Shown piece by piece: positions 10,610 to 58,399 of a stretch of DNA of 64,000 nt. Source of the DNA: Candidatus Babeliales bacterium (GTDB taxonomy: Bacteria > Babelota > Babeliae > Babelales > JBFXEV01). The notes under the pieces are model-generated. The model was not told where the DNA came from. It searched no databases and saw only the letters and a list, made by a program, of their open reading frames with translations. The DNA lies in the NCBI GenBank assembly GCA_050179755.1, contig JBFXEV010000001.1, forward strand, positions 143,881 through 207,880, read 5' to 3'. Within the stretch, counting starts at the first letter, position 1. Every line of letters starts with the position of its first letter. Position numbers and translations under genes: made by a program.

Positions 10610-12901
10610 ATGAGCAAATATTTCAAACCACAACACATATTACTCGGTCTTATTGCGTCTTTTGCATCAACCATCAAAAGCGAGCACGCATGCGCACCCT
10701 TAGTTTGTGCAAGTGTAGTAAAGGCAGGTAAAGTAATAACTGACCAACTGATTGTCACTAATCCTACCATTGATGGCTGTGCAGTGCATACAATCACTCA
10801 GGCTGATTTTTTGCAAAATGGCACCTTAAGTAAAACCCTAATAATAACTGAACCAGGCTACTATAAATTTTGTGAAAACATAGATTTTGTAGCGCTTACA
10901 CAATTTGGTGCAGCGGTTATCATTGACACTGACGATATGGTTCTTGATTTGAATGGAAAGGTATTAAACCAAGCAAATAGTCCTACTATTAGTACTAGAA
11001 CCTCACACAGAGTTCCTGGTGTTCCTAGTTCAATTACGGGCATTATAGTCAACACTGGTCATAATAATGTAACAATCCTAGGCAACTATGGAGCAGTAAC
11101 TAACTTCTCACAACGTGGCATTTACGTGCAAGGTGGCAATAATAATATAACTATTGGAAATGACACACAACTGCTTATTACCGGTTGCGGCCATGGCACC
11201 CCCGTGAGCTTTGTTGATCAGACTAATAGTGGCGAGCAAGCAGTATTACAAGCTGGCTTACAAGTAGGAGAAATGCAATTCTTAACACCGTTCGGCTTTG
11301 AACCATCAAATGGTTTACTTAAAGGGCTCTCAGTAAGAAATGTTATTTTATCCGAGAACAATGCAGGATGTGCATTGGGTGATGGTTCAAACTACTTCTT
11401 TAACGATTGCACTATGTCATTCAATAGAGATACGCGACCAGTATGGCCAACTATCGGATATGGCTATTTTGGTTCAACTTTGGGAGCTGTCGTTTGCTAC
11501 GGATTGGCTTATTTTTCTAATCCCGATGGTTTGGGAATTGAAACACTTCAATTTGATAACTGTGACTTCAACTCAAATGTAGCTGATGCATCGATTGATC
11601 CTGAAACTTTTTCTGCGTATTGCGATAGCTTTAACGTTGCCGTCAATTTTTCTAACTTAAAAATATCCAATTGCCGTTTTAATAATAACAATGCAAAATT
11701 ACAGCAAAGAACGGATGTTACTCAATTCAATCAAACACGTGGTTGTGTAATCGGGGGTGGCACGGACATACTTCTGCAAGATTCAGAATTCTCAAACAAC
11801 CTAGGTGGTGGCTTAGTTGATGGATTAAACATCAGCGGTAAAATTCCTGTAAATAGCACCGCACAAGTCATTTCTCAACCAAAATCATTCACTATTAGAA
11901 ACTGCATATTCTCAAACAATAAAGCAAGCACCAATGGTGCCGTTATTGCAAATCCGGGAACTGCTGGATCAGGCAGCCAGGGAGCAATTGGCCAAAAAGC
12001 ACTTGATGTCGTAGGTTGCGTTATCAGATTCCCTCATGGCCTTTCTATGATTGATTGTGTAATTGAAGATAACACTGCCGAAATTCTTTCTACAGAAACT
12101 GATTACTTAGTATATACTGATGGAATCTTACTATTTGCAGATAATAATTTCCCTGATAGCCCAACAAACAACGTGGAAATTCGTGGCGCTAAAATATCCC
12201 GTAACAGAAATAATGGGGTACAAGGCACCTCCGCAGGGATAACTACATTAGATGGTCTTTGTGAAAATATTACTATCGTCGATTCGGTAATTACTGAAAA
12301 CAGCTTCCCTAATTATCAACCAAATTTCTTTGCGGCTGGTATTGATATTACTGGGATGACGCGAACACGCCCATCATTAGTATCAGTTATTAATTGTATT
12401 ATTAATAATCATGCATCGGCAGGTATCTTCACCTCATTACAACAAACCAATATTCAAGGCAATACCATTTCATTTAATACGTGGGGTGTAATATTAGGCT
12501 CATTCCAAGAAGAAGATGGTGGACCTATCGGTTATCCAATCGGCTCAAGCGTTCTTAATAATACGTTTTTAGGTAATGGCACAGCAGTTGAGGATCAACC
12601 AAGCCAAGCACTACCACCAGTATATAGCACCTCTCTTGTATCTAACAATCTAGCCTTTAATAATGAGCTAGGATACTTGGTGACCTATGAAGGCGATGTT
12701 TCTGTGCCAGTTGAATTTGGTACATTATCAGCATTTCCACCATACCCGCCATCAGTATTAGCTTCAAACATTGAAATTGTTCCAAATCCTGCAAACCAAT
12801 TCATTAGTGCAATTAGTTCACAAGATGCTTGTAAGGCTAAAAACGAAATTCAAGCATGCACTGGTACAAATAAAACCAAGAAAGCAAGAAGAAGCAAATA
12901 A
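10610..12901 (+). CDS. Large secreted right-handed parallel beta-helix (pectin-lyase-like fold) protein
   Basis: Signal peptide; ITEPGYY..ENI, LDLNG, repeated IxNCxFxNN strands; AAGGAG SD. Confidence 0.8.
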   Translation: MSKYFKPQHILLGLIASFASTIKSEHACAPLVCASVVKAGKVITDQLIVTNPTIDGCAVHTITQADFLQNGTLSKTLIITEPGYYKFCENIDFVALTQFGAAVIIDTDDMVLDLNGKVLNQANSPTISTRTSHRVPGVPSSITGIIVNTGHNNVTILGNYGAVTNFSQRGIYVQGGNNNITIGNDTQLLITGCGHGTPVSFVDQTNSGEQAVLQAGLQVGEMQFLTPFGFEPSNGLLKGLSVRNVILSENNAGCALGDGSNYFFNDCTMSFNRDTRPVWPTIGYGYFGSTLGAVVCYGLAYFSNPDGLGIETLQFDNCDFNSNVADASIDPETFSAYCDSFNVAVNFSNLKISNCRFNNNNAKLQQRTDVTQFNQTRGCVIGGGTDILLQDSEFSNNLGGGLVDGLNISGKIPVNSTAQVISQPKSFTIRNCIFSNNKASTNGAVIANPGTAGSGSQGAIGQKALDVVGCVIRFPHGLSMIDCVIEDNTAEILSTETDYLVYTDGILLFADNNFPDSPTNNVEIRGAKISRNRNNGVQGTSAGITTLDGLCENITIVDSVITENSFPNYQPNFFAAGIDITGMTRTRPSLVSVINCIINNHASAGIFTSLQQTNIQGNTISFNTWGVILGSFQEEDGGPIGYPIGSSVLNNTFLGNGTAVEDQPSQALPPVYSTSLVSNNLAFNNELGYLVTYEGDVSVPVEFGTLSAFPPYPPSVLASNIEIVPNPANQFISAISSQDACKAKNEIQACTGTNKTKKARRSK

Positions 12902-14056: not shown

Positions 14057-15754
14057 ATGCGCCAAGGATTTTACTTGTTTAATTATTTCTTTTTCTTCTG
14101 TAGCATACTCTGCACTACCACCAATCTATGGTGCATGCGAACCCAGCCATTTTTTAAAGTTGTTACAACTAATGATGGCAAAGAATATATGGCCCATCCT
14201 AAATTATTTGCAGCTTGTAACTCTGTTGTTCCTATCGACCCTACTGAACATATTTTTCCACTGAAAACGGTTTCAAGTACAGAATGGGAACCATTCGAGG
14301 CTTGTTTACAAGCATTATTTAAAGAAGAAAGGACTATGCAACCTGCACAACAGCGCTCCTTAGGCGTGATTATAGGAGAGCAAGCTACCAATAAAAAAAG
14401 AGCTCGCGATATACTTGCAGTAGCGCATTTATTTGGTCATGATCAACTTGTAGATGCCACCATGCAACTATGGGCAGATCGCAATTATGGCATGCCAGAG
14501 CAAATTTCTAGTGATTCGCTACCGCATGAACTGGTCTACGATTTGCCAGCTGATGCACAAGAAGGGATAGCTCAAAAGGTACTTTATAGTACGCCTTTAG
14601 ACCAAAAGTTACCAAAATGGGTAATAAAAATGAACATAAAACCGCGCACCATAAAACTTACACAGAGTTTATGGTCATGCGCAGCAAATAAACATTCTCA
14701 AGTTGCTGTAGGCTGCGTGGATGGTACAATTACCATTCTTGCTGATGAAACTGTTCAACGAAATTTTCCGGCGCATACCAAAGAAGTAAGCGATCTTCAC
14801 TTTTGCCCCGATGGCAACTTTTTATTTTCTGCAGCGCAAGACAGCGTAATCAAAGTGTGGAATGCACAACAAGAATTTGCATTCGTTCGTGAATTTCAAT
14901 TAAACAAACCGACACTTCCTTTTTCTATAGCGCTTAATACTCAAAATACGTTAATTGCAACACCACTTGACCAGGGTATACGCGTATTTGATGCCAACAC
15001 CGATGATATTAACTTTATACTAAATCCAAATAGTAAATCAGCCACCGTTATTTTTGACCAAACAGGTGCGCGCTTGATTGCAGATGCGCAACAAAGTACT
15101 ATTGCAATTTTCAATGTACAAACAGGAATACAGGAAGCAGCACTTGAAATCCAACAAAATATACCTCAGCGATTGCAATGTAATGCGCAAAATTCTTTGC
15201 TTGCAGCCGGTATGAAATCTGGCCTTATATTTTTATGGAACCTTTCTGATTTTAGCTTACAAGCAACCTTTAATGCGCATGCAAATAAAATTTGGGCGAT
15301 CGAATTTAGCCCTTGTAGTAGATTTTTATTCACGGCTTCTACAGATAAAACCGTTAAGATTTGGGATCTAGTCACCGTTAAATGTATAAAAACCTTTAAC
15401 GTTAACACCGCCGTACATGATATGCGCCTTACCCCAGATTTAGAACTTATTATAGCGTGCAAAAACCGTGCCCTAAAATTCATTCCCATTAAAGACTTTC
15501 TTAAACAATATCAAAAACACTGCCATTATTTTAAAAACAAGACTACACTTGCACAGGCTCTTTTAATTCAAGAAGCTTTTACCAGAAAACAAGATAACCC
15601 GCTTGTGTTGACACCCGAAGCTAGAGCAACATTAAGCACATTTGATCCAATTATTAAGGCTTTACTTCAAAAAGAATTACCATTCCAAAAAGCAACAAAG
15701 AAAAAAAGGAAAACAGAAGATGAAAAAGATGCAGATTACGTTCCAGACAATTAA
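14057..15754 (+). CDS. Secreted Skp1/BTB-like plus WD40-repeat protein
   Basis: Signal peptide (LWC-M); VVTTNDGKEY..FPLKTV..ILAVAHLFGHDQLVD; WD40 repeats (AHTKEV..IKVWN, AHANKIW..VKIWD); KKKRK tail. Confidence 0.85.
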   Translation: MRQGFYLFNYFFFFCSILCTTTNLWCMRTQPFFKVVTTNDGKEYMAHPKLFAACNSVVPIDPTEHIFPLKTVSSTEWEPFEACLQALFKEERTMQPAQQRSLGVIIGEQATNKKRARDILAVAHLFGHDQLVDATMQLWADRNYGMPEQISSDSLPHELVYDLPADAQEGIAQKVLYSTPLDQKLPKWVIKMNIKPRTIKLTQSLWSCAANKHSQVAVGCVDGTITILADETVQRNFPAHTKEVSDLHFCPDGNFLFSAAQDSVIKVWNAQQEFAFVREFQLNKPTLPFSIALNTQNTLIATPLDQGIRVFDANTDDINFILNPNSKSATVIFDQTGARLIADAQQSTIAIFNVQTGIQEAALEIQQNIPQRLQCNAQNSLLAAGMKSGLIFLWNLSDFSLQATFNAHANKIWAIEFSPCSRFLFTASTDKTVKIWDLVTVKCIKTFNVNTAVHDMRLTPDLELIIACKNRALKFIPIKDFLKQYQKHCHYFKNKTTLAQALLIQEAFTRKQDNPLVLTPEARATLSTFDPIIKALLQKELPFQKATKKKRKTEDEKDADYVPDN

Positions 15755-17489
15755 ACAAAATCTACTGGGCATACTATTCATCATTTCTTGCACAACAATG
15801 CCCTTGCACCAAGTTGATGGCACAATCACATGCTTTAGTAACGGCAAGCCAGTTTCACACCTTAAAACCACGTTGCAAACAGGACAACAACAAGTCATTG
15901 TAAAAACTAAAATATTAATGCCTTGTCTTGCACTAGCAGTACATATTGAAGAAGGGCAGGAGGTCATTCCATTACCCAACATACCACCATTTGAGCTTCT
16001 TCATGTAGCAGCATGCCTGCAAGCGCATTATGAACTTATGCACGCTCGTTCAAAAGAAGAATATCAAGGAAAACGCCAACAACTTGATGCACAGCTTAAT
16101 TCAGAAGAAAAAGTTCACACAGCGCTTATGGCAGCAAATTATTTAGATCATAAAGATCTGCGTGCTCGATGCGCATCCCTTTGGGCCACTAAAAATTACT
16201 CGCGCTCATTTATGCAAGCTACGCCTGACGAAGTTGAATTTGAAATTGCACAGCGAAAACTTGAACAAACATCACTCCATGACGATATTGCCTATTGGAT
16301 GGCTCAAAAAACTTGGATCAACCCCACAAGGACACTTAATCATAAGAACCGGTCAGTTTGGTCACTGGCTTCCAATAGCTCTGGCACGCAAGTTGCCGTT
16401 GGCGATTACTTGGGAAAAATTAGAGTATATGAGCAGGATCAAAAAGAACCTAGTATTAGCATACAAGCACATGCTACTGCCATCACTGATATAGCATTTA
16501 ACGAAGATGATACTTTGGTAGCCACTTGTGCAAGAGATGGCTCACTTCGTTTTTGGGATATTGAAACTAAAGCACAAAAATCGCAACTTGACAGCGACCA
16601 TCCGCTTGCCCCCTATGCCTTTAAAACGCATTACAACACAGAGCAAATTGCCTATGATGAAGGATCTAACATTATAGTCGTAAACCCCGCCAATGACACA
16701 GAAAAAGTACTTGAAGGCCATAGTGATTATATTTGCTCTCTTGCTTTTAATAGTGAAGGCACCATGCTTGCATCAGGGGGGGAAGACTGCTCCATAAAAC
16801 TCTGGGATCTTTCCACTGGTGCGTGCATGGCAACATTAATTTCTCATACAGAATCGGTGGCTTGCGTACAATTTAGCCCTGATGACAGTTTACTTGCAGC
16901 AGGATCTATGGATGCTAGTATTTCTCTCTATGATGTTTCAACGCAAGAATTAGTTACAAAACTTGAAGGCCATAAGAACAAAGTTTGGTCGGTAATTATT
17001 TCAAACGATAATCAATTTTTATATTCTGCCTCAGTTGATGGCTCGATTAAAATCTGGCATTTGCCTACTGCGCGCTTGATTAAAAATTTAGTGACTTTTC
17101 CACGTACCCAGCTGCATGCAATGGTTTTGCAACCCAATGGCAGATTAGTTACTGCAGCATTAAATGGAGATATACAATTTTGGGATATCCCTACAATAAT
17201 CCATCCCATACAAGCGCTGCAAAAGTATATGCAAAGCGACAGAAGTTTTGATCAAGCCCAATTGATTGTTGATGCTTATGATGCACCTCAAAAAGAGCCT
17301 CTTGATTGTTCAACAAAGCGTGAACGAGCAAGAGCTTTTGAAACACTTAGACCTGAAATGCAAGACTTACTTATACACAACTTGCATGTAAAGCCCCCAA
17401 AGAAAAGAGTAAAATCAAGAAAGAAAGGTTCACAAAATAGTTCATCACGCAAACGCGCTACCGCTGATGCAATTGAGCCATTCAAGTAA
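15720..17489 (+). CDS. Skp1/BTB-like plus WD40-repeat protein, paralog of the upstream gene
   Basis: Likely start ATG 15720; VIPLPNI and ALMAANYLDHKDL match Skp1 motifs; GH..WD repeats; basic tail PPKKRVKSRKK..RKR. Confidence 0.88.
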   Translation: MKKMQITFQTIKQNLLGILFIISCTTMPLHQVDGTITCFSNGKPVSHLKTTLQTGQQQVIVKTKILMPCLALAVHIEEGQEVIPLPNIPPFELLHVAACLQAHYELMHARSKEEYQGKRQQLDAQLNSEEKVHTALMAANYLDHKDLRARCASLWATKNYSRSFMQATPDEVEFEIAQRKLEQTSLHDDIAYWMAQKTWINPTRTLNHKNRSVWSLASNSSGTQVAVGDYLGKIRVYEQDQKEPSISIQAHATAITDIAFNEDDTLVATCARDGSLRFWDIETKAQKSQLDSDHPLAPYAFKTHYNTEQIAYDEGSNIIVVNPANDTEKVLEGHSDYICSLAFNSEGTMLASGGEDCSIKLWDLSTGACMATLISHTESVACVQFSPDDSLLAAGSMDASISLYDVSTQELVTKLEGHKNKVWSVIISNDNQFLYSASVDGSIKIWHLPTARLIKNLVTFPRTQLHAMVLQPNGRLVTAALNGDIQFWDIPTIIHPIQALQKYMQSDRSFDQAQLIVDAYDAPQKEPLDCSTKRERARAFETLRPEMQDLLIHNLHVKPPKKRVKSRKKGSQNSSSRKRATADAIEPFK

Positions 17490-20178: not shown

Positions 20179-20673
20179 ATGAAGAAACTTGCCATTGCTC
20201 TATTATTTTGCGTATGCCCACCCCTGTATAGCGCGTCTAACATTATTCCCTTGGAAAAATTAATGTTCTATTCCATAGTTGCTGATAATGCCAAAGAAAA
20301 ACTAGCGCACGAATATCCGGAATATACTGCTTGGCTTTCTGATACTAACGCTCTTTTGCTCCTTAACTTTATTACTACAACAGATAAGCCTGTGATTATT
20401 AAATTCGGTGCTGACTGGTGCATGCCCTGCAAGAGCCTTGCACCCATTGTGCACGAAGCCGCTTTTGAATGCAGTAATGACGTCCTTATTATTGACATTA
20501 ATATTGATGATGCGCCTACGATCCGCCAAATGTTTGATATTCAAACTATCCCTACCTTAATTTATTTTAAAAATGGCAAACAAAAGGATCGCACCCACTC
20601 TGTTAGTAAAGCAACCCTACTTACTAAAATCAAACATTTAATTGACCTAAAAAGTCCTTTATTTACCCCGTAA
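20179..20673 (+). CDS. Exported thioredoxin family protein
   Basis: Signal peptide; WCMPCK, IPTL..FKNG. Confidence 0.88.
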   Translation: MKKLAIALLFCVCPPLYSASNIIPLEKLMFYSIVADNAKEKLAHEYPEYTAWLSDTNALLLLNFITTTDKPVIIKFGADWCMPCKSLAPIVHEAAFECSNDVLIIDINIDDAPTIRQMFDIQTIPTLIYFKNGKQKDRTHSVSKATLLTKIKHLIDLKSPLFTP

Positions 20674-20790
20674 AAATAGAAGACTTGTCCTGTATTAAAG
20701 CATTATTTCCGACGCAAGATTTGCCCAGATAACAATAAAAAGGTATAGTAAAAAGTAGATAGTAACGTAGTAAAAAAGTAGGAATATCTA

Positions 20791-21300
20791 ATGAATAAAA
20801 ATAGTATTTTTGCCCTTACCATGCTGGCAGCTACTTGGGGCTTAACATTAAATGTATGTGCAGGGCAAGCGGCTAACGTACAAGACATCAAACAATTAAG
20901 CGATGCTGGCATTCAGCCGCAAGACCTTAAAGTATATTTGCAAAAAAATGCACCCGATTTAGTAAAATTTGTGGGCACAACGCCTAGTAAGCTTGAAGTA
21001 CAATTATTTACCACTATTGCGCAATCAAAAAAGCCTGTAGTAGTTAAATTCTATATAAATGGATGTGGCCCCTGCAAGCAAATGGGTAGAATAGTGGAAC
21101 AAGTTGCAAAAGAACTTGGTGAAAGCATATTGGTAATTAATATAGAATCAACCGAAGCTACCCGCAATCTTATGCGCGTTTTGAATGCAAATGGAGTTCC
21201 TACGCTTGTTTTCTTTAAAGATGGCAAAAAAGTAGATCAATTTACCGGCACGCTCAGCGCACAAGAATTAACAGGTAAGCTTAAAAAGTTAGTGAACTAA
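20791..21300 (+). CDS. Exported thioredoxin family protein
   Basis: Signal peptide; GCGPCK, VPTLVFFKDG. Confidence 0.88.
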   Translation: MNKNSIFALTMLAATWGLTLNVCAGQAANVQDIKQLSDAGIQPQDLKVYLQKNAPDLVKFVGTTPSKLEVQLFTTIAQSKKPVVVKFYINGCGPCKQMGRIVEQVAKELGESILVINIESTEATRNLMRVLNANGVPTLVFFKDGKKVDQFTGTLSAQELTGKLKKLVN

Positions 21301-28437: not shown

Positions 28438-29562
28438 ATGAAACGTTCTTATCACTTACTTGTTACGTTGGTAACACTTAGTTATTCATTATCAGCAGTT
28501 GCTGGTTGCCCGTGCGCGCGTGAAAAACGTGCAATGCGCGCAAAACGAACTGCTGTTCAGCCAATGGCACCAGTAACTTCTGTTTCTCAATCAGTTGGCA
28601 ATATAGTTTCTGATCTTACACAGGGCAATGTAGTTGGAGCAACCGGTCAAGCAATTAGAACAGCACCTGATGCTACAGCATCTGTAGTACAACCCAGTAT
28701 GCCAAAAACAGAAAAAAGGCTAATGGAAGTTGAAGCGGCGCCTATGCCTAAGAAAATGAAAACTGAAGCTCCAGCACCAGCACCACAAGTCATGGAAAAT
28801 AATAGAATTGATCTCTCGAAACAGTCTGATTTTGATGCACTTATAACCAAACATCCACACGTTATCGCAGTGTTTACTACAACTTGGTGCGGCCCCTGCA
28901 AAAATTTAAAACCAGTTCTTGATGAAATACGTACAAGTAACAAAGATGTAATGTTTGTGTATGTTGATGGTGATGAGTATCCAGGGCTTGTTAGCAAATA
29001 TGCAAGCGTGGGATTCCCTACGCTCAAATTGTTTAAAAATGGCAAAGAAGTTGCTCAAGCAATTGGTGGACAATCAAAAGATGAAATACAAAGCTTAATC
29101 AATCAACATTTTAAAGGTGGCGTGCCAACATTTGTAATGGGTGATGCTACTGAATCAATAGAACAAGTGGCAGCTCCCGCACCACAACCTATTAAAATGC
29201 CTGCACCTGCTCCAGCACCAATGCAAGAATCCATGACAGCAAACAAAATAGTCCTTGTAAAAGACTCAGATTTTGATGGTCATTTAAGAAAAAACAAAAA
29301 CGTTATTGGCATCTTTACTACCACATGGTGCGGGCCATGTAAAACGCTTAAACCAGTACTTGAAGAACTTGTAGGATCAAATGCAAACGTAACGTTTGTC
29401 TACGTTGATGGTGATAGATTCCCAAGTCTTGTAAAAAAATATGCAAGCATTGGATTCCCAACACTTAAATTCTTTAAGAATGGTAAAGAAGTTGCACAGA
29501 CTGTTGGTGGCAGATCACGCGATGAATTGCAAAGCATGATTAACCAACATTATAGAGGATAA
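28438..29562 (+). CDS. Exported tandem two-domain thioredoxin with Pro/Ala/Met-rich linkers
   Basis: Signal peptide, two near-duplicated WCGPCK..GFPTLK.FKNGKEVAQ domains; AAGGAG SD. Confidence 0.9.
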   Translation: MKRSYHLLVTLVTLSYSLSAVAGCPCAREKRAMRAKRTAVQPMAPVTSVSQSVGNIVSDLTQGNVVGATGQAIRTAPDATASVVQPSMPKTEKRLMEVEAAPMPKKMKTEAPAPAPQVMENNRIDLSKQSDFDALITKHPHVIAVFTTTWCGPCKNLKPVLDEIRTSNKDVMFVYVDGDEYPGLVSKYASVGFPTLKLFKNGKEVAQAIGGQSKDEIQSLINQHFKGGVPTFVMGDATESIEQVAAPAPQPIKMPAPAPAPMQESMTANKIVLVKDSDFDGHLRKNKNVIGIFTTTWCGPCKTLKPVLEELVGSNANVTFVYVDGDRFPSLVKKYASIGFPTLKFFKNGKEVAQTVGGRSRDELQSMINQHYRG

Positions 29563-57334: not shown

Positions 57335-58399
57335 CTAATTATTGCTGTTATTAATTGACGATATTGGTTCTATACCCATTAATGCTGCTCGCACATTTTG
57401 CTCAACAGCTTCGCGGTAAAGCTCATCAACATTCTCCGCTTTCATAAAATCAAATGTTCGCGCAACGCCAGGAATTCCATGAACATGCCTCCAAAATGCT
57501 GCCCCTAGATCAAATTCAATATCCGGATTTTCAGTAAGAAATTGTCTTAGCATATTAAGTCTATAATCAACAATAACGGGAACCAACTTGGCCAATACTC
57601 TTGGCCTTGTAGCAACAGGAATATTTACGCATAATTCCTGAAACCATTCAAATGGGCACATTGCCACCAATTGCTCTAATGATGATTCACTCTGAACGTA
57701 TGCTAATTGACACACATTTGAAATATCTTCTGGCAAGAATGAAAGAATTTTGCATATAACGTTATCTGGCAAGTCAATTATTTTTAATACTTGGTATGCT
57801 GCATCAAATCGAGCCCCAGCCTCCAATGAACCATTGCTTGCGGGAGTAAAAGATGCGTTTTCTAATAAAACTTTAATTAGTTGGCAGTGCTTGTCAGTTG
57901 GAGGTGGCAAAACAATGTAGATCATACTCTCAATATTTGATCTATTAATTTTATACCCGCAATTAAAAAAGAAATCCATTACCTTAACATCTCTCTTTTC
58001 TAGTGCCCGCACAAGAGCCCATTGAGCTTCTCTAGAATCAATGTCAATCTCACCATCTCTCATAATTTGTTTGGCAAGATCAAAATTGTGTACTTTTAAT
58101 GCATTGGCAAAAAGCTCACCCCATTGCCGCCGGTGCAACTCTTGTTGTGCTCGCATGCGATCGAACTCCCCACCACGTCGCTCTTGTTCAAGCCTTTGTT
58201 GACGGTTCTGATACCAGTCATAGCATACAATGGCTAACCCCAATGCACCCGTAACACTAGCTATTATTACGGGATGTTCTTTTGCGATATTCCATATACG
58301 GCCAAAAAAGCCTTGATTATTATCTTGCTCCATGCCGAAGGCAGGTTGAGCAACACACATTACAGATAAAATAAGGGTTATTTTCTTGAAAATATTCAT
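57335..58399 (-). CDS. Degenerate ankyrin protein with F-box-like motif, array member 1
   Basis: AFG-MEQ leader plus TM; ankyrin-like helices; DLPDNVICKILSFLP. Confidence 0.7.
   Translation of the reverse strand: MNIFKKITLILSVMCVAQPAFGMEQDNNQGFFGRIWNIAKEHPVIIASVTGALGLAIVCYDWYQNRQQRLEQERRGGEFDRMRAQQELHRRQWGELFANALKVHNFDLAKQIMRDGEIDIDSREAQWALVRALEKRDVKVMDFFFNCGYKINRSNIESMIYIVLPPPTDKHCQLIKVLLENASFTPASNGSLEAGARFDAAYQVLKIIDLPDNVICKILSFLPEDISNVCQLAYVQSESSLEQLVAMCPFEWFQELCVNIPVATRPRVLAKLVPVIVDYRLNMLRQFLTENPDIEFDLGAAFWRHVHGIPGVARTFDFMKAENVDELYREAVEQNVRAALMGIEPISSINNSNN

Follow-up and report, generated by a model that had tools for sequence, protein, structure and literature searches.

The stretch of DNA analysed here, called the window below, comprises 64,000 nucleotides of a Candidatus Babeliales bacterium and corresponds to G000:C1:143881-207880, where G000 is the source genome, a single contig (C1) of 1.525 Mb with 39% G+C. 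At positions 14057-17489 it carries two genes, named gene 1 and gene 2, in which a Skp1-like domain is fused to a WD40 propeller (Table 1). The initial annotation of this DNA had placed two tandem open reading frames (ORFs) on the plus strand; their positions were confirmed, and every motif that it quoted was located in the two genes. The ORFs overlap by 35 nucleotides, and their products are 26% identical over 520 columns. The pair is flanked by ankyrin genes. A genome of the same genus (G001) has an orthologous pair with unchanged gene order beside an ankyrin gene and the pgi-zwf-gnd genes, with 36% identity over 555 columns for gene 1 and 50% for gene 2. Three contigs from DNA runs match the stretch 14057-17489 without differences and may be its source; no RNA run was listed for it, which carries no information on expression. 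Promoter and terminator counts at the pair were no higher than in shuffles. The source genome displays ATP/ADP translocase matches at three places and two secretin genes. These features fit the Babelota (Dependentiae, TM6), described as living inside protists and as having gspD in two copies and numerous signal peptides (PMC4776705, PMC6561590).

Table 1. Features of gene 1 and gene 2, with their positions in the window
Feature	Position	Strand	Basis and remarks
Gene 1	14057-15754	+	Intact ORF, 565 amino acids: leader, degenerate Skp1-like domain, linker, WD40 propeller, helical tail, basic patch
Gene 1 hydrophobic export-type leader	14057-14134	+	Residues 1-26; putative cleavage before M27; hydropathy heuristic, alignment
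Gene 1 Skp1-like POZ domain	14135-14485	+	PLKT in place of PxPN, HL in place of NY
Gene 1 FPLKTV	14255-14272	+	Sequence
Gene 1 ILAVAHLFGHDQL	14411-14449	+	Sequence
Gene 1 helical linker with LPxD/E helix	14486-14650	+	Alignments; no Pfam match
Gene 1 LPADAQEGIAQK	14543-14578	+	Sequence
Gene 1 WD40 propeller	14651-15487	+	Pfam WD40, 92 bits
Gene 1 C-terminal helical domain	15491-15691	+	Subfamily-wide; E 4e-23 to a profile that includes gene 1
Gene 1 basic patch KKKRK	15698-15712	+	Acidic residues next; also in P0007, P0011, P0014; candidate nuclear import signal
Gene 2	15720-17489	+	Intact ORF, 589 amino acids from the ATG at 15720; frame open from 15642; architecture as gene 1
Gene 2 hydrophobic export-type leader	15720-15797	+	Residues 1-26; sequence, hydropathy heuristic
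Gene 2 Skp1-like domain	15861-16217	+	Residues 48-166; PLPN and ANYL kept
Gene 2 VIPLPNI	15963-15983	+	Sequence
Gene 2 ALMAANYLDHKDL	16122-16160	+	Sequence
Gene 2 linker	16221-16322	+	TPDE helix and second helix at the place of Skp1 helix 8/F-box; from the secondary structure of the models
Gene 2 TPDEVEFEIAQR	16221-16256	+	Sequence
Gene 2 seven-bladed WD40 propeller	16323-17186	+	Pfam WD40; model Z ~40 to seven-bladed propellers
Gene 2 four-helix C-terminal domain	17190-17390	+	Of no assigned family; model, profile
Gene 2 basic tail, predicted disordered	17394-17456	+	pLDDT <50 from residue 567; candidate nuclear import signal
Gene 2 PPKKRVKSRKK	17394-17426	+	Sequence
Gene 2 RKR	17448-17456	+	Sequence

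The WD40 propeller proposed at the outset was recovered by Pfam above the cut-off in both genes. A model of the full-length gene 2 product, obtained from a 14-row alignment (mean predicted local distance difference test score, pLDDT, of 85; predicted template modelling score, pTM, of 0.78), shows an N-terminal domain with three strands and many helices, followed by a linker made of helices and by a propeller of seven blades; four more helices and a disordered tail complete the chain. The order of Skp1-like domain, WD40 propeller and basic tail stands as first described, to which a four-helix domain between propeller and tail has to be added. These four helices are common to several family members and are probably packed against the linker. 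When the complete gene 2 model was used for fold searches, only propellers came back and nothing on the linker, and the C-terminal helical domain gave no usable hit in the Atlas.

The N-terminal domain had been assigned to the BTB/Skp1 fold, with Pfam proposed as a check. Taken alone, the domain of neither gene was matched by Pfam Skp1_POZ, Skp1 or BTB, and a phmmer search against the PDB gave one coiled-coil hit only, which was rejected. A search with the gene 2 domain against 1.84 billion representatives returned 10 proteins, itself included. Adding the G001 pair, gene 1 and P0003 gives the 14 rows referred to as the window family (rows are numbered P0003 and so on, other loci carry L numbers), 13 of which are long enough to display the same propeller and tail. 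The profile made from the N-terminal parts of these 14 homologues, without any Skp1 seed, matched solved Skp1 from E 4e-10 and Elongin C at 0.04. TAL-repeat rows in the same search had scores added up from many 2-bit pieces and were discarded as artefacts. A wider profile of 52 rows reached E 7e-30 for Skp1, 1e-11 for Elongin C and 0.1 for BTB-ZF; it is not independent, since it was partly seeded from Skp1_POZ hits.

Both domains were further scored, along with shuffled sequences, against one profile of 45 domains of the phylum, from which the window subfamily was left out, and another of 115 eukaryotic Skp1 sequences. With the phylum profile, 37.9 bits were obtained for gene 2 (best of 482 shuffles 8.4) and 17.4 bits for gene 1 (best of 444 scored shuffles 5.0). 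The eukaryotic profile gave 20.8 bits for gene 2 (best of 429 shuffles 7.9) and -2.2 bits for gene 1, 390 of 415 shuffles being as good. Judged from these profiles, the link of gene 1 to Skp1 runs through its relatives and not directly.

The gene 2 domain was modelled with a pLDDT of 91 and adopts the BTB/POZ core fold, to which the gene 1 domain is assigned by homology only. Its best match among 48,161 chains was Skp1 (1ldk_D, residues 2-140; Z 11.5, root-mean-square deviation (rmsd) 3.2, 108 residues), followed by two more Skp1 chains, by SPOP and KBTBD2 (Z 9.2) and by Elongin C (Z 8.9). Foldseek placed Skp1 complexes ahead, with the first BTB entry at rank 37. From the profiles and the predicted structure, the domain derives from Skp1 and is nearer to it than to Elongin C or to Cul3-type BTB, and the fold assigned initially is borne out by the family profiles and the gene 2 model. 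In trees, eukaryotic and bacterial domains were split by one branch, with a support of 99 when non-core columns were included and of 92 on 93 core columns. A single origin of the bacterial domains may be compatible with this topology; it is neither excluded nor shown, because the trees are quick searches with long branches, 40 of the 115 eukaryotic rows and no outgroup.

Gene 1 and gene 2 belong to a larger family. Seven more genes with a leader, Skp1_POZ and WD40 were found in the source genome above the Pfam cut-off, five of them as a tandem array at C1:403832-412712, the other two at 682573-685905. The window-family profile detected all seven (E 4e-10 to 8e-16; profile-profile probability 98%), and its iteration added two ORFs with C-termini of the leucine-rich repeat (LRR) type and one ORF of 205 amino acids. 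In a sample of 261 genomes of the phylum (21 families; all those listed in one order), Skp1_POZ matched 46 genomes, 45 of them above the cut-off and from 9 families, and none of 14 control genomes. The 71 loci gave 63 matching ORFs, reduced to 56 by removal of 7 truncated duplicates; these are top hits and not a census, and near-copies are included. WD40 was present in 34 of the 56 and a leader in 50. Among the 22 ORFs devoid of WD40, 18 were scanned, revealing LRR in five, ankyrin in three, a propeller in two, an M48 peptidase in one and no second family in seven. The Skp1-derived domain is thus reused with WD40, LRR and ankyrin domains, and the single-chain fusion recognised in the initial annotation extends to a family larger than it had seen. 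Four viral homologues are stand-alone Skp1 proteins of 148-168 amino acids.

Several members of the family deserve mention in their own right. The array at C1:403832-412712 has highly regular internal WD40 repeats, and four of its five genes end in a hydrophobic, membrane-anchor-like tail. Two or three tandem Skp1-like domains per chain occur in L018, L020, L056 and L071. In L037:334-1692 (minus strand) the domain is joined to an M48 peptidase domain, with no repeats. In a giant virus (L075:66-2696), a stand-alone Skp1 follows three ankyrin-type ORFs with a common C-terminal box (SPLRxLP...). A genome-contig scan for the family returned one WD40 locus, which is unrelated. A second family of leader-propeller genes, to which no family was assigned, lies at G000:C1:218891-226392, 467253-473281 and 521163-522569; its members have in common a short N-terminal module of helices (SLYxxF...D...LI) and a helical domain at the C-terminus, both conserved.

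In Skp1, the PxPN motif of strand 3 contacts Cul1 and the two C-terminal helices bind the F-box (PMC1257465). The change N139K/Y140K of yeast Skp1 blocks Cul1 binding (PMC5771398), and in our own reading these two residues would be equivalent to the NY of AANYL in the bacterial domains. Retention of these motifs was counted by alignment column in the 14 window-family rows and in 48 other rows. NY is kept in 9 of the former and 25 of the latter, and the pattern [NHD][YF] is present in 12 and 40, respectively. Among the 14 window-family rows, 11 and 12 retain the two prolines of PxP. Gene 2 retains both PxPN and NY, gene 1 neither of them. The Skp1 helix-8 motif was found in 112 of 115 eukaryotic rows and in none of the 62 bacterial rows, and Pfam Skp1 (PF01466, helices 7-8) gave nothing over the cut-off across the source genome; an equivalent of helix 7 was found in the bacterial domains. 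The alignments indicate loss of the end that grips the F-box and partial retention of the surface facing the cullin, a pattern to be expected of a protein that brings its receptor on its own chain.

The helix following the domain (LPADAQEGIAQK in gene 1, TPDEVEFEIAQR in gene 2) had been regarded as resembling the start of an F-box. It carries a P-x-E/D motif after helix 6, with P in 11 and E/D in all 14 window-family rows, and in a joint alignment, tabulated for 12 of the 14 rows, this motif falls on TPEE at the start of helix 7 of Skp1 itself. Two observations speak for a separate linker element: the structural alignment hits Skp1 residue 140 before the TPDE helix, chain 1ldk_D ending at 140, and paralogues carry both a TxEQI and an LPxEI segment. 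Pfam F-box, SOCS and VHL gave no support for the linker. The linker helix is a candidate F-box start that resembles the helix-7 start of Skp1 as much. A literature search found no paper on contacts of F-box Pro/Glu with Cul1, and such contacts were not used as evidence.

With a chance that we rate somewhat better than even, the genes encode exported one-piece adaptors which dock on cullin-1 of the host and use the propeller to capture host proteins and offer them for ubiquitylation. The proteins would be exported by the Sec pathway and released into the protist host by a type II-like secretin. The POZ core would then bind the N-terminus of the cullin via the PxPN strand and the NY helix, while the protein's own linker and C-terminal helices would occupy the place of the F-box, and therefore neither host Skp1 nor a host F-box protein would be needed. 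The propeller would pick the substrate, and the basic tails would direct the window pair to the nucleus. WD40 and LRR are the usual receptor domains of Skp1-Cul1-F-box (SCF) ligases (PMC3779351). Gene 2 appears to fit the docking step, and gene 1, in which the contact residues are lost, probably binds the cullin weakly, through gene 2, or not at all. Recruitment of Cul1 is likely for the family as a whole, less sure for the divergent window pair and doubtful for gene 1 alone.

Complex modelling with Cul1 had been proposed as a check of the idea that the fusions redirect host cullin ligases. The gene 2 domain was modelled with the N-terminus of Cul1 from the metagenome record L085, both as alignments (the L085 cullin matches Cul1 at E 4e-49 and Cul3 at 1e-9). 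A median of 0.39 was obtained (runs 0.64, 0.15 and 0.39), the best of three controls reaching 0.00, which gives weak support. In the calibration, 116 of 157 solved pairs but no more than 2 of 215 mismatched pairs attained this mark. The model may shift the odds only a little. For gene 2, the kept motifs and this one weak Cul1 model speak for cullin binding; gene 1 has lost NY and PxPN.

A number of points weigh against the docking of these proteins on cullin-1. The gene 2-Cul1 runs disagree, with a contact agreement of at least 0% and a partner pLDDT of at least 72; of the calibration pairs that reached the mark, only 18 solved ones, but both mismatches, did so at 0.60 or below; what the pass reflects may be the known structure of the Skp1-Cul1 complex; and the modelled cullin is a stand-in from a metagenome. 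The asparagine of PxPN is kept in only 4 of 14 window-family and 16 of 48 other rows, and NY is replaced by HL in gene 1 and by HY in two close homologues of gene 2. Pfam F-box (PF00646/PF12937) did not match the linker at E up to 10. A leader similar to that of the pair is found, by a crude hydropathy rule, on 53% of the source-genome ORFs of at least 300 amino acids. The lead of Skp1 over SPOP in the structure match is ~2 Z units only. Core identity to the nearest sampled eukaryotic Skp1 amounts to 28% for gene 2 and 18% for gene 1, five other family members that were checked reaching 42-53%, and by these values the window pair is a divergent branch of the larger family.

The pair could have lost cullin binding altogether; its domain would now have a structural role or mediate pairing, be it between gene 1 and gene 2 or with another host partner of Skp1, and only the more canonical paralogues would still recruit cullin. 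We regard this as unlikely, even though gene 1 has neither NY nor PxPN and no score against eukaryotic Skp1, HY replaces NY in P0003, P0013 and P0014, and the conserved serine of helix 2 is changed to cysteine in 12 of 14 rows. The neighbourhood would also suit a pairing module: genes 1 and 2 are still neighbours in G001, and a pair of the same subfamily is adjacent in G201. However, NY is retained by gene 2 and 8 of its 13 relatives, the gene 2 fold is intact in the model (pLDDT 91), and the Cul1 complex gave its weak pass.

The structural neighbours of the gene 2 model bear on whether another cullin, of the Cul3 or Cul2/5 type, is bound, with the helices after the POZ core acting as a 3-box or a SOCS/VHL box. 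The BTB/3-box of SPOP aligns up to model residue 151 (Z 9.2, rmsd 4.4) and KBTBD2 up to residue 165 (Z 9.2, rmsd 6.0), and the smallest rmsd, 2.4 over 87, is that of Elongin C. Two leader-WD40 paralogues that lack the POZ core, G000:C1:827093-828430 (L140) and 1158153-1159607 (L141), begin with a helix resembling what we take to be a BC box, followed by the same 'EEIAxLP' segment; with one gene of the tandem Skp1-WD40 array they share 35-38% identity. Pfam F-box, SOCS and VHL gave no support for these starts, in which a swap of the cullin-recruiting module is possible. One-chain adaptors are moreover the rule for Cul3 (PMC3597819). Against another cullin stand the sequence profiles, which prefer Skp1 by many orders of magnitude, the lack of any Pfam BTB (PF00651) match in G000 or G001, and the models, which correspond to the short-form core without the BTB dimerisation extension. 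Binding of another cullin is thus distinctly improbable in our estimation.

Docking on host cullin-1 presupposes delivery. A Sec-type leader by itself reaches the periplasm only, and as about half of the long ORFs have a similar one, the leader alone is no proof of delivery to the host cytosol. In four paralogues the C-terminus is hydrophobic and resembles a membrane anchor. Confinement of the proteins to the periplasm, the surface or a vacuole, where they would never meet a cullin, would be in line with these features and is nevertheless the least probable of the alternatives considered. A cullin search gave no match in the 261 phylum genomes or in one viral record, although the controls were also without match and the absence of cullin from the phylum is therefore not demonstrated; given this result, the kept contact residues have no known bacterial partner. 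In addition, both lines of orthologues retain basic tails. Among the 583 source-genome ORFs of at least 300 amino acids, 10, genes 1 and 2 included, have 6 K/R in 8 residues near the C-terminus, and at least 5 K/R are present there in 8 of 14 window-family rows. The tails had been read as resembling nuclear localisation signals; they are indeed present, rare and kept in the orthologues, but missing from many family members (P0005, P0006, P0009, P0012 and most paralogues, four of which end hydrophobic instead). From these sequences, a reasonable inference is that different copies go to different host destinations.

The receptor domains of the family speak to a last alternative, in which the proteins would be decoys that bind Cul1 and occupy the scaffold, blocking host SCF ligases with no new substrates tagged. 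Such an effect follows from the competition of adaptors for Cul1, and a few members have no recognisable receptor domain (7 of the 18 scanned, and the 205-amino-acid ORF). Most copies have diversified repeats, tandem arrays and divergent propellers, which a pure decoy would not need, making this alternative very unlikely. Returning to one-piece adaptors docking on cullin-1, a fuller scenario can be drawn, to which we give slightly less than an even chance. The phylum, parasitic on protists, would have captured eukaryotic Skp1 and cut its F-box-binding end, giving a portable Cul1-docking cassette with interchangeable WD40, LRR, ankyrin or enzyme domains. Tandem expansion would have turned it into a set of SCF receptors made of one chain, which need neither Skp1 nor F-box proteins of the host. 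The window pair would be directed to the nucleus, and some paralogues would have swapped the core for a BC-box-like helix and so reach other cullins.

Other features of the window were noted beside the pair. A leader-bearing ORF of 763 amino acids (10610-12901, plus strand) has N/G/S-rich repeats suggestive of a beta-helix; it had no Pfam match and no counterpart at that position in G001. Several thioredoxin-type genes with N-terminal extensions lie at 20179-21300 and 28438-29562, and both genes at 20179-21300 carry leaders and have conserved counterparts in G001. At 57335-58399 (minus strand), a leader-bearing ORF of 354 amino acids displays a weak internal F-box-like match (E 0.025, below the cut-off), similar to that of an ankyrin protein at G000:C1:1245263-1246486.

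Literature searches, with subscription papers mostly outside their reach, gave no report of Skp1-type domains in Babelota or of bacterial Skp1-receptor fusions. A term search of the main text and nine supplements of PMC4378268 found Skp1 only in a reference title, and one in a supplement of PMC4776705 found no Skp1-type domain. The main text of PMC6561590, searched for BTB and F-box terms only, held nothing on bacterial Skp1 fusions, and neither did the parts covered of PMC12172432 and PMC13237083. Canonical paralogues may already be labelled Skp1 POZ by automatic annotation. The fold and the family are well supported, and the Skp1-propeller fusion family is real and forms an apparently undescribed variant of a known strategy. 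The known bacterial routes to cullin ligases are a borrowed host adaptor, as with F-box effectors, or a Cul3-type BTB. If the proposed function is true, bacteria would have one more route, built on Skp1 itself, and the family would represent the two-chain receptor arm of the SCF condensed by nature into one chain. The family would also offer a testable handle on the manipulation of protist hosts by a poorly cultured phylum, and natural templates for compact degrader proteins recruiting Cul1.

The closest system for comparison is Skp1 in SCF ligases with the F-box/WD40 receptors Cdc4, Fbw7 and beta-TrCP (PDB 1ldk, 1nex, 1p22). The bacterial proteins share with Skp1 the POZ core and the helix 6-7 extension, and PxPN and NY in gene 2; substrate modules of the WD40 or LRR type occur in both systems. 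Skp1 itself comprises little beyond the core and stands alone (PMC1257465), with ~160 amino acids, whereas the bacterial proteins have 565 and 589 amino acids, a leader, no helix-8 motif and a fused receptor. As in F-box/WD40 receptors, a propeller follows a helical linker, but the three-helix F-box motif was not matched. Skp1 of giant viruses is captured too, but stands alone in the four genes found. The BTB-WD40 proteins of Mimivirus and human KCTD3/SHKBP1 also have a BTB fold before WD40, presumably of the T1/KCTD type.

In one-chain Cul3 adaptors, namely the BTB-BACK-Kelch proteins KLHL11 and KEAP1, and SPOP, the adaptor, a helical box and a propeller are likewise on one chain, and these have been described as single-chain analogues of Skp1/beta-TrCP (PMC3597819). 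Their BTB is of the long, dimerising form, in contrast to the short-form domain of the window proteins, which by sequence is Skp1-derived. The chlamydial PEX1 BTB-LRR proteins of Protochlamydia also belong to an amoeba-associated bacterium, are tandem-duplicated, combine an N-terminal BTB fold with repeats and were proposed as effectors of host ubiquitylation; they differ by a Pfam BTB, LRR only and type III signals (PMC4209131). In the same paper the Parachlamydiaceae are called the only prokaryotes known with BTB, and Skp1-type domains are not reported in its searched text and one supplement. Redirection of host SCF ligases, in part proposed, would be shared with Legionella AnkB and with the F-box proteins of Babela massiliensis (PMC4378268); bacterial F-box effectors need host Skp1, whereas the window proteins bring their own Skp1-like domain. 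From their sequences, the window proteins are members neither of the Cul3-adaptor nor of the PEX1 families, and they are neither full Skp1 nor F-box proteins. On the reading as one-piece cullin-1 adaptors, their mode of work would be analogous to that of the one-chain Cul3 adaptors, combined with an expansion like that of PEX1.

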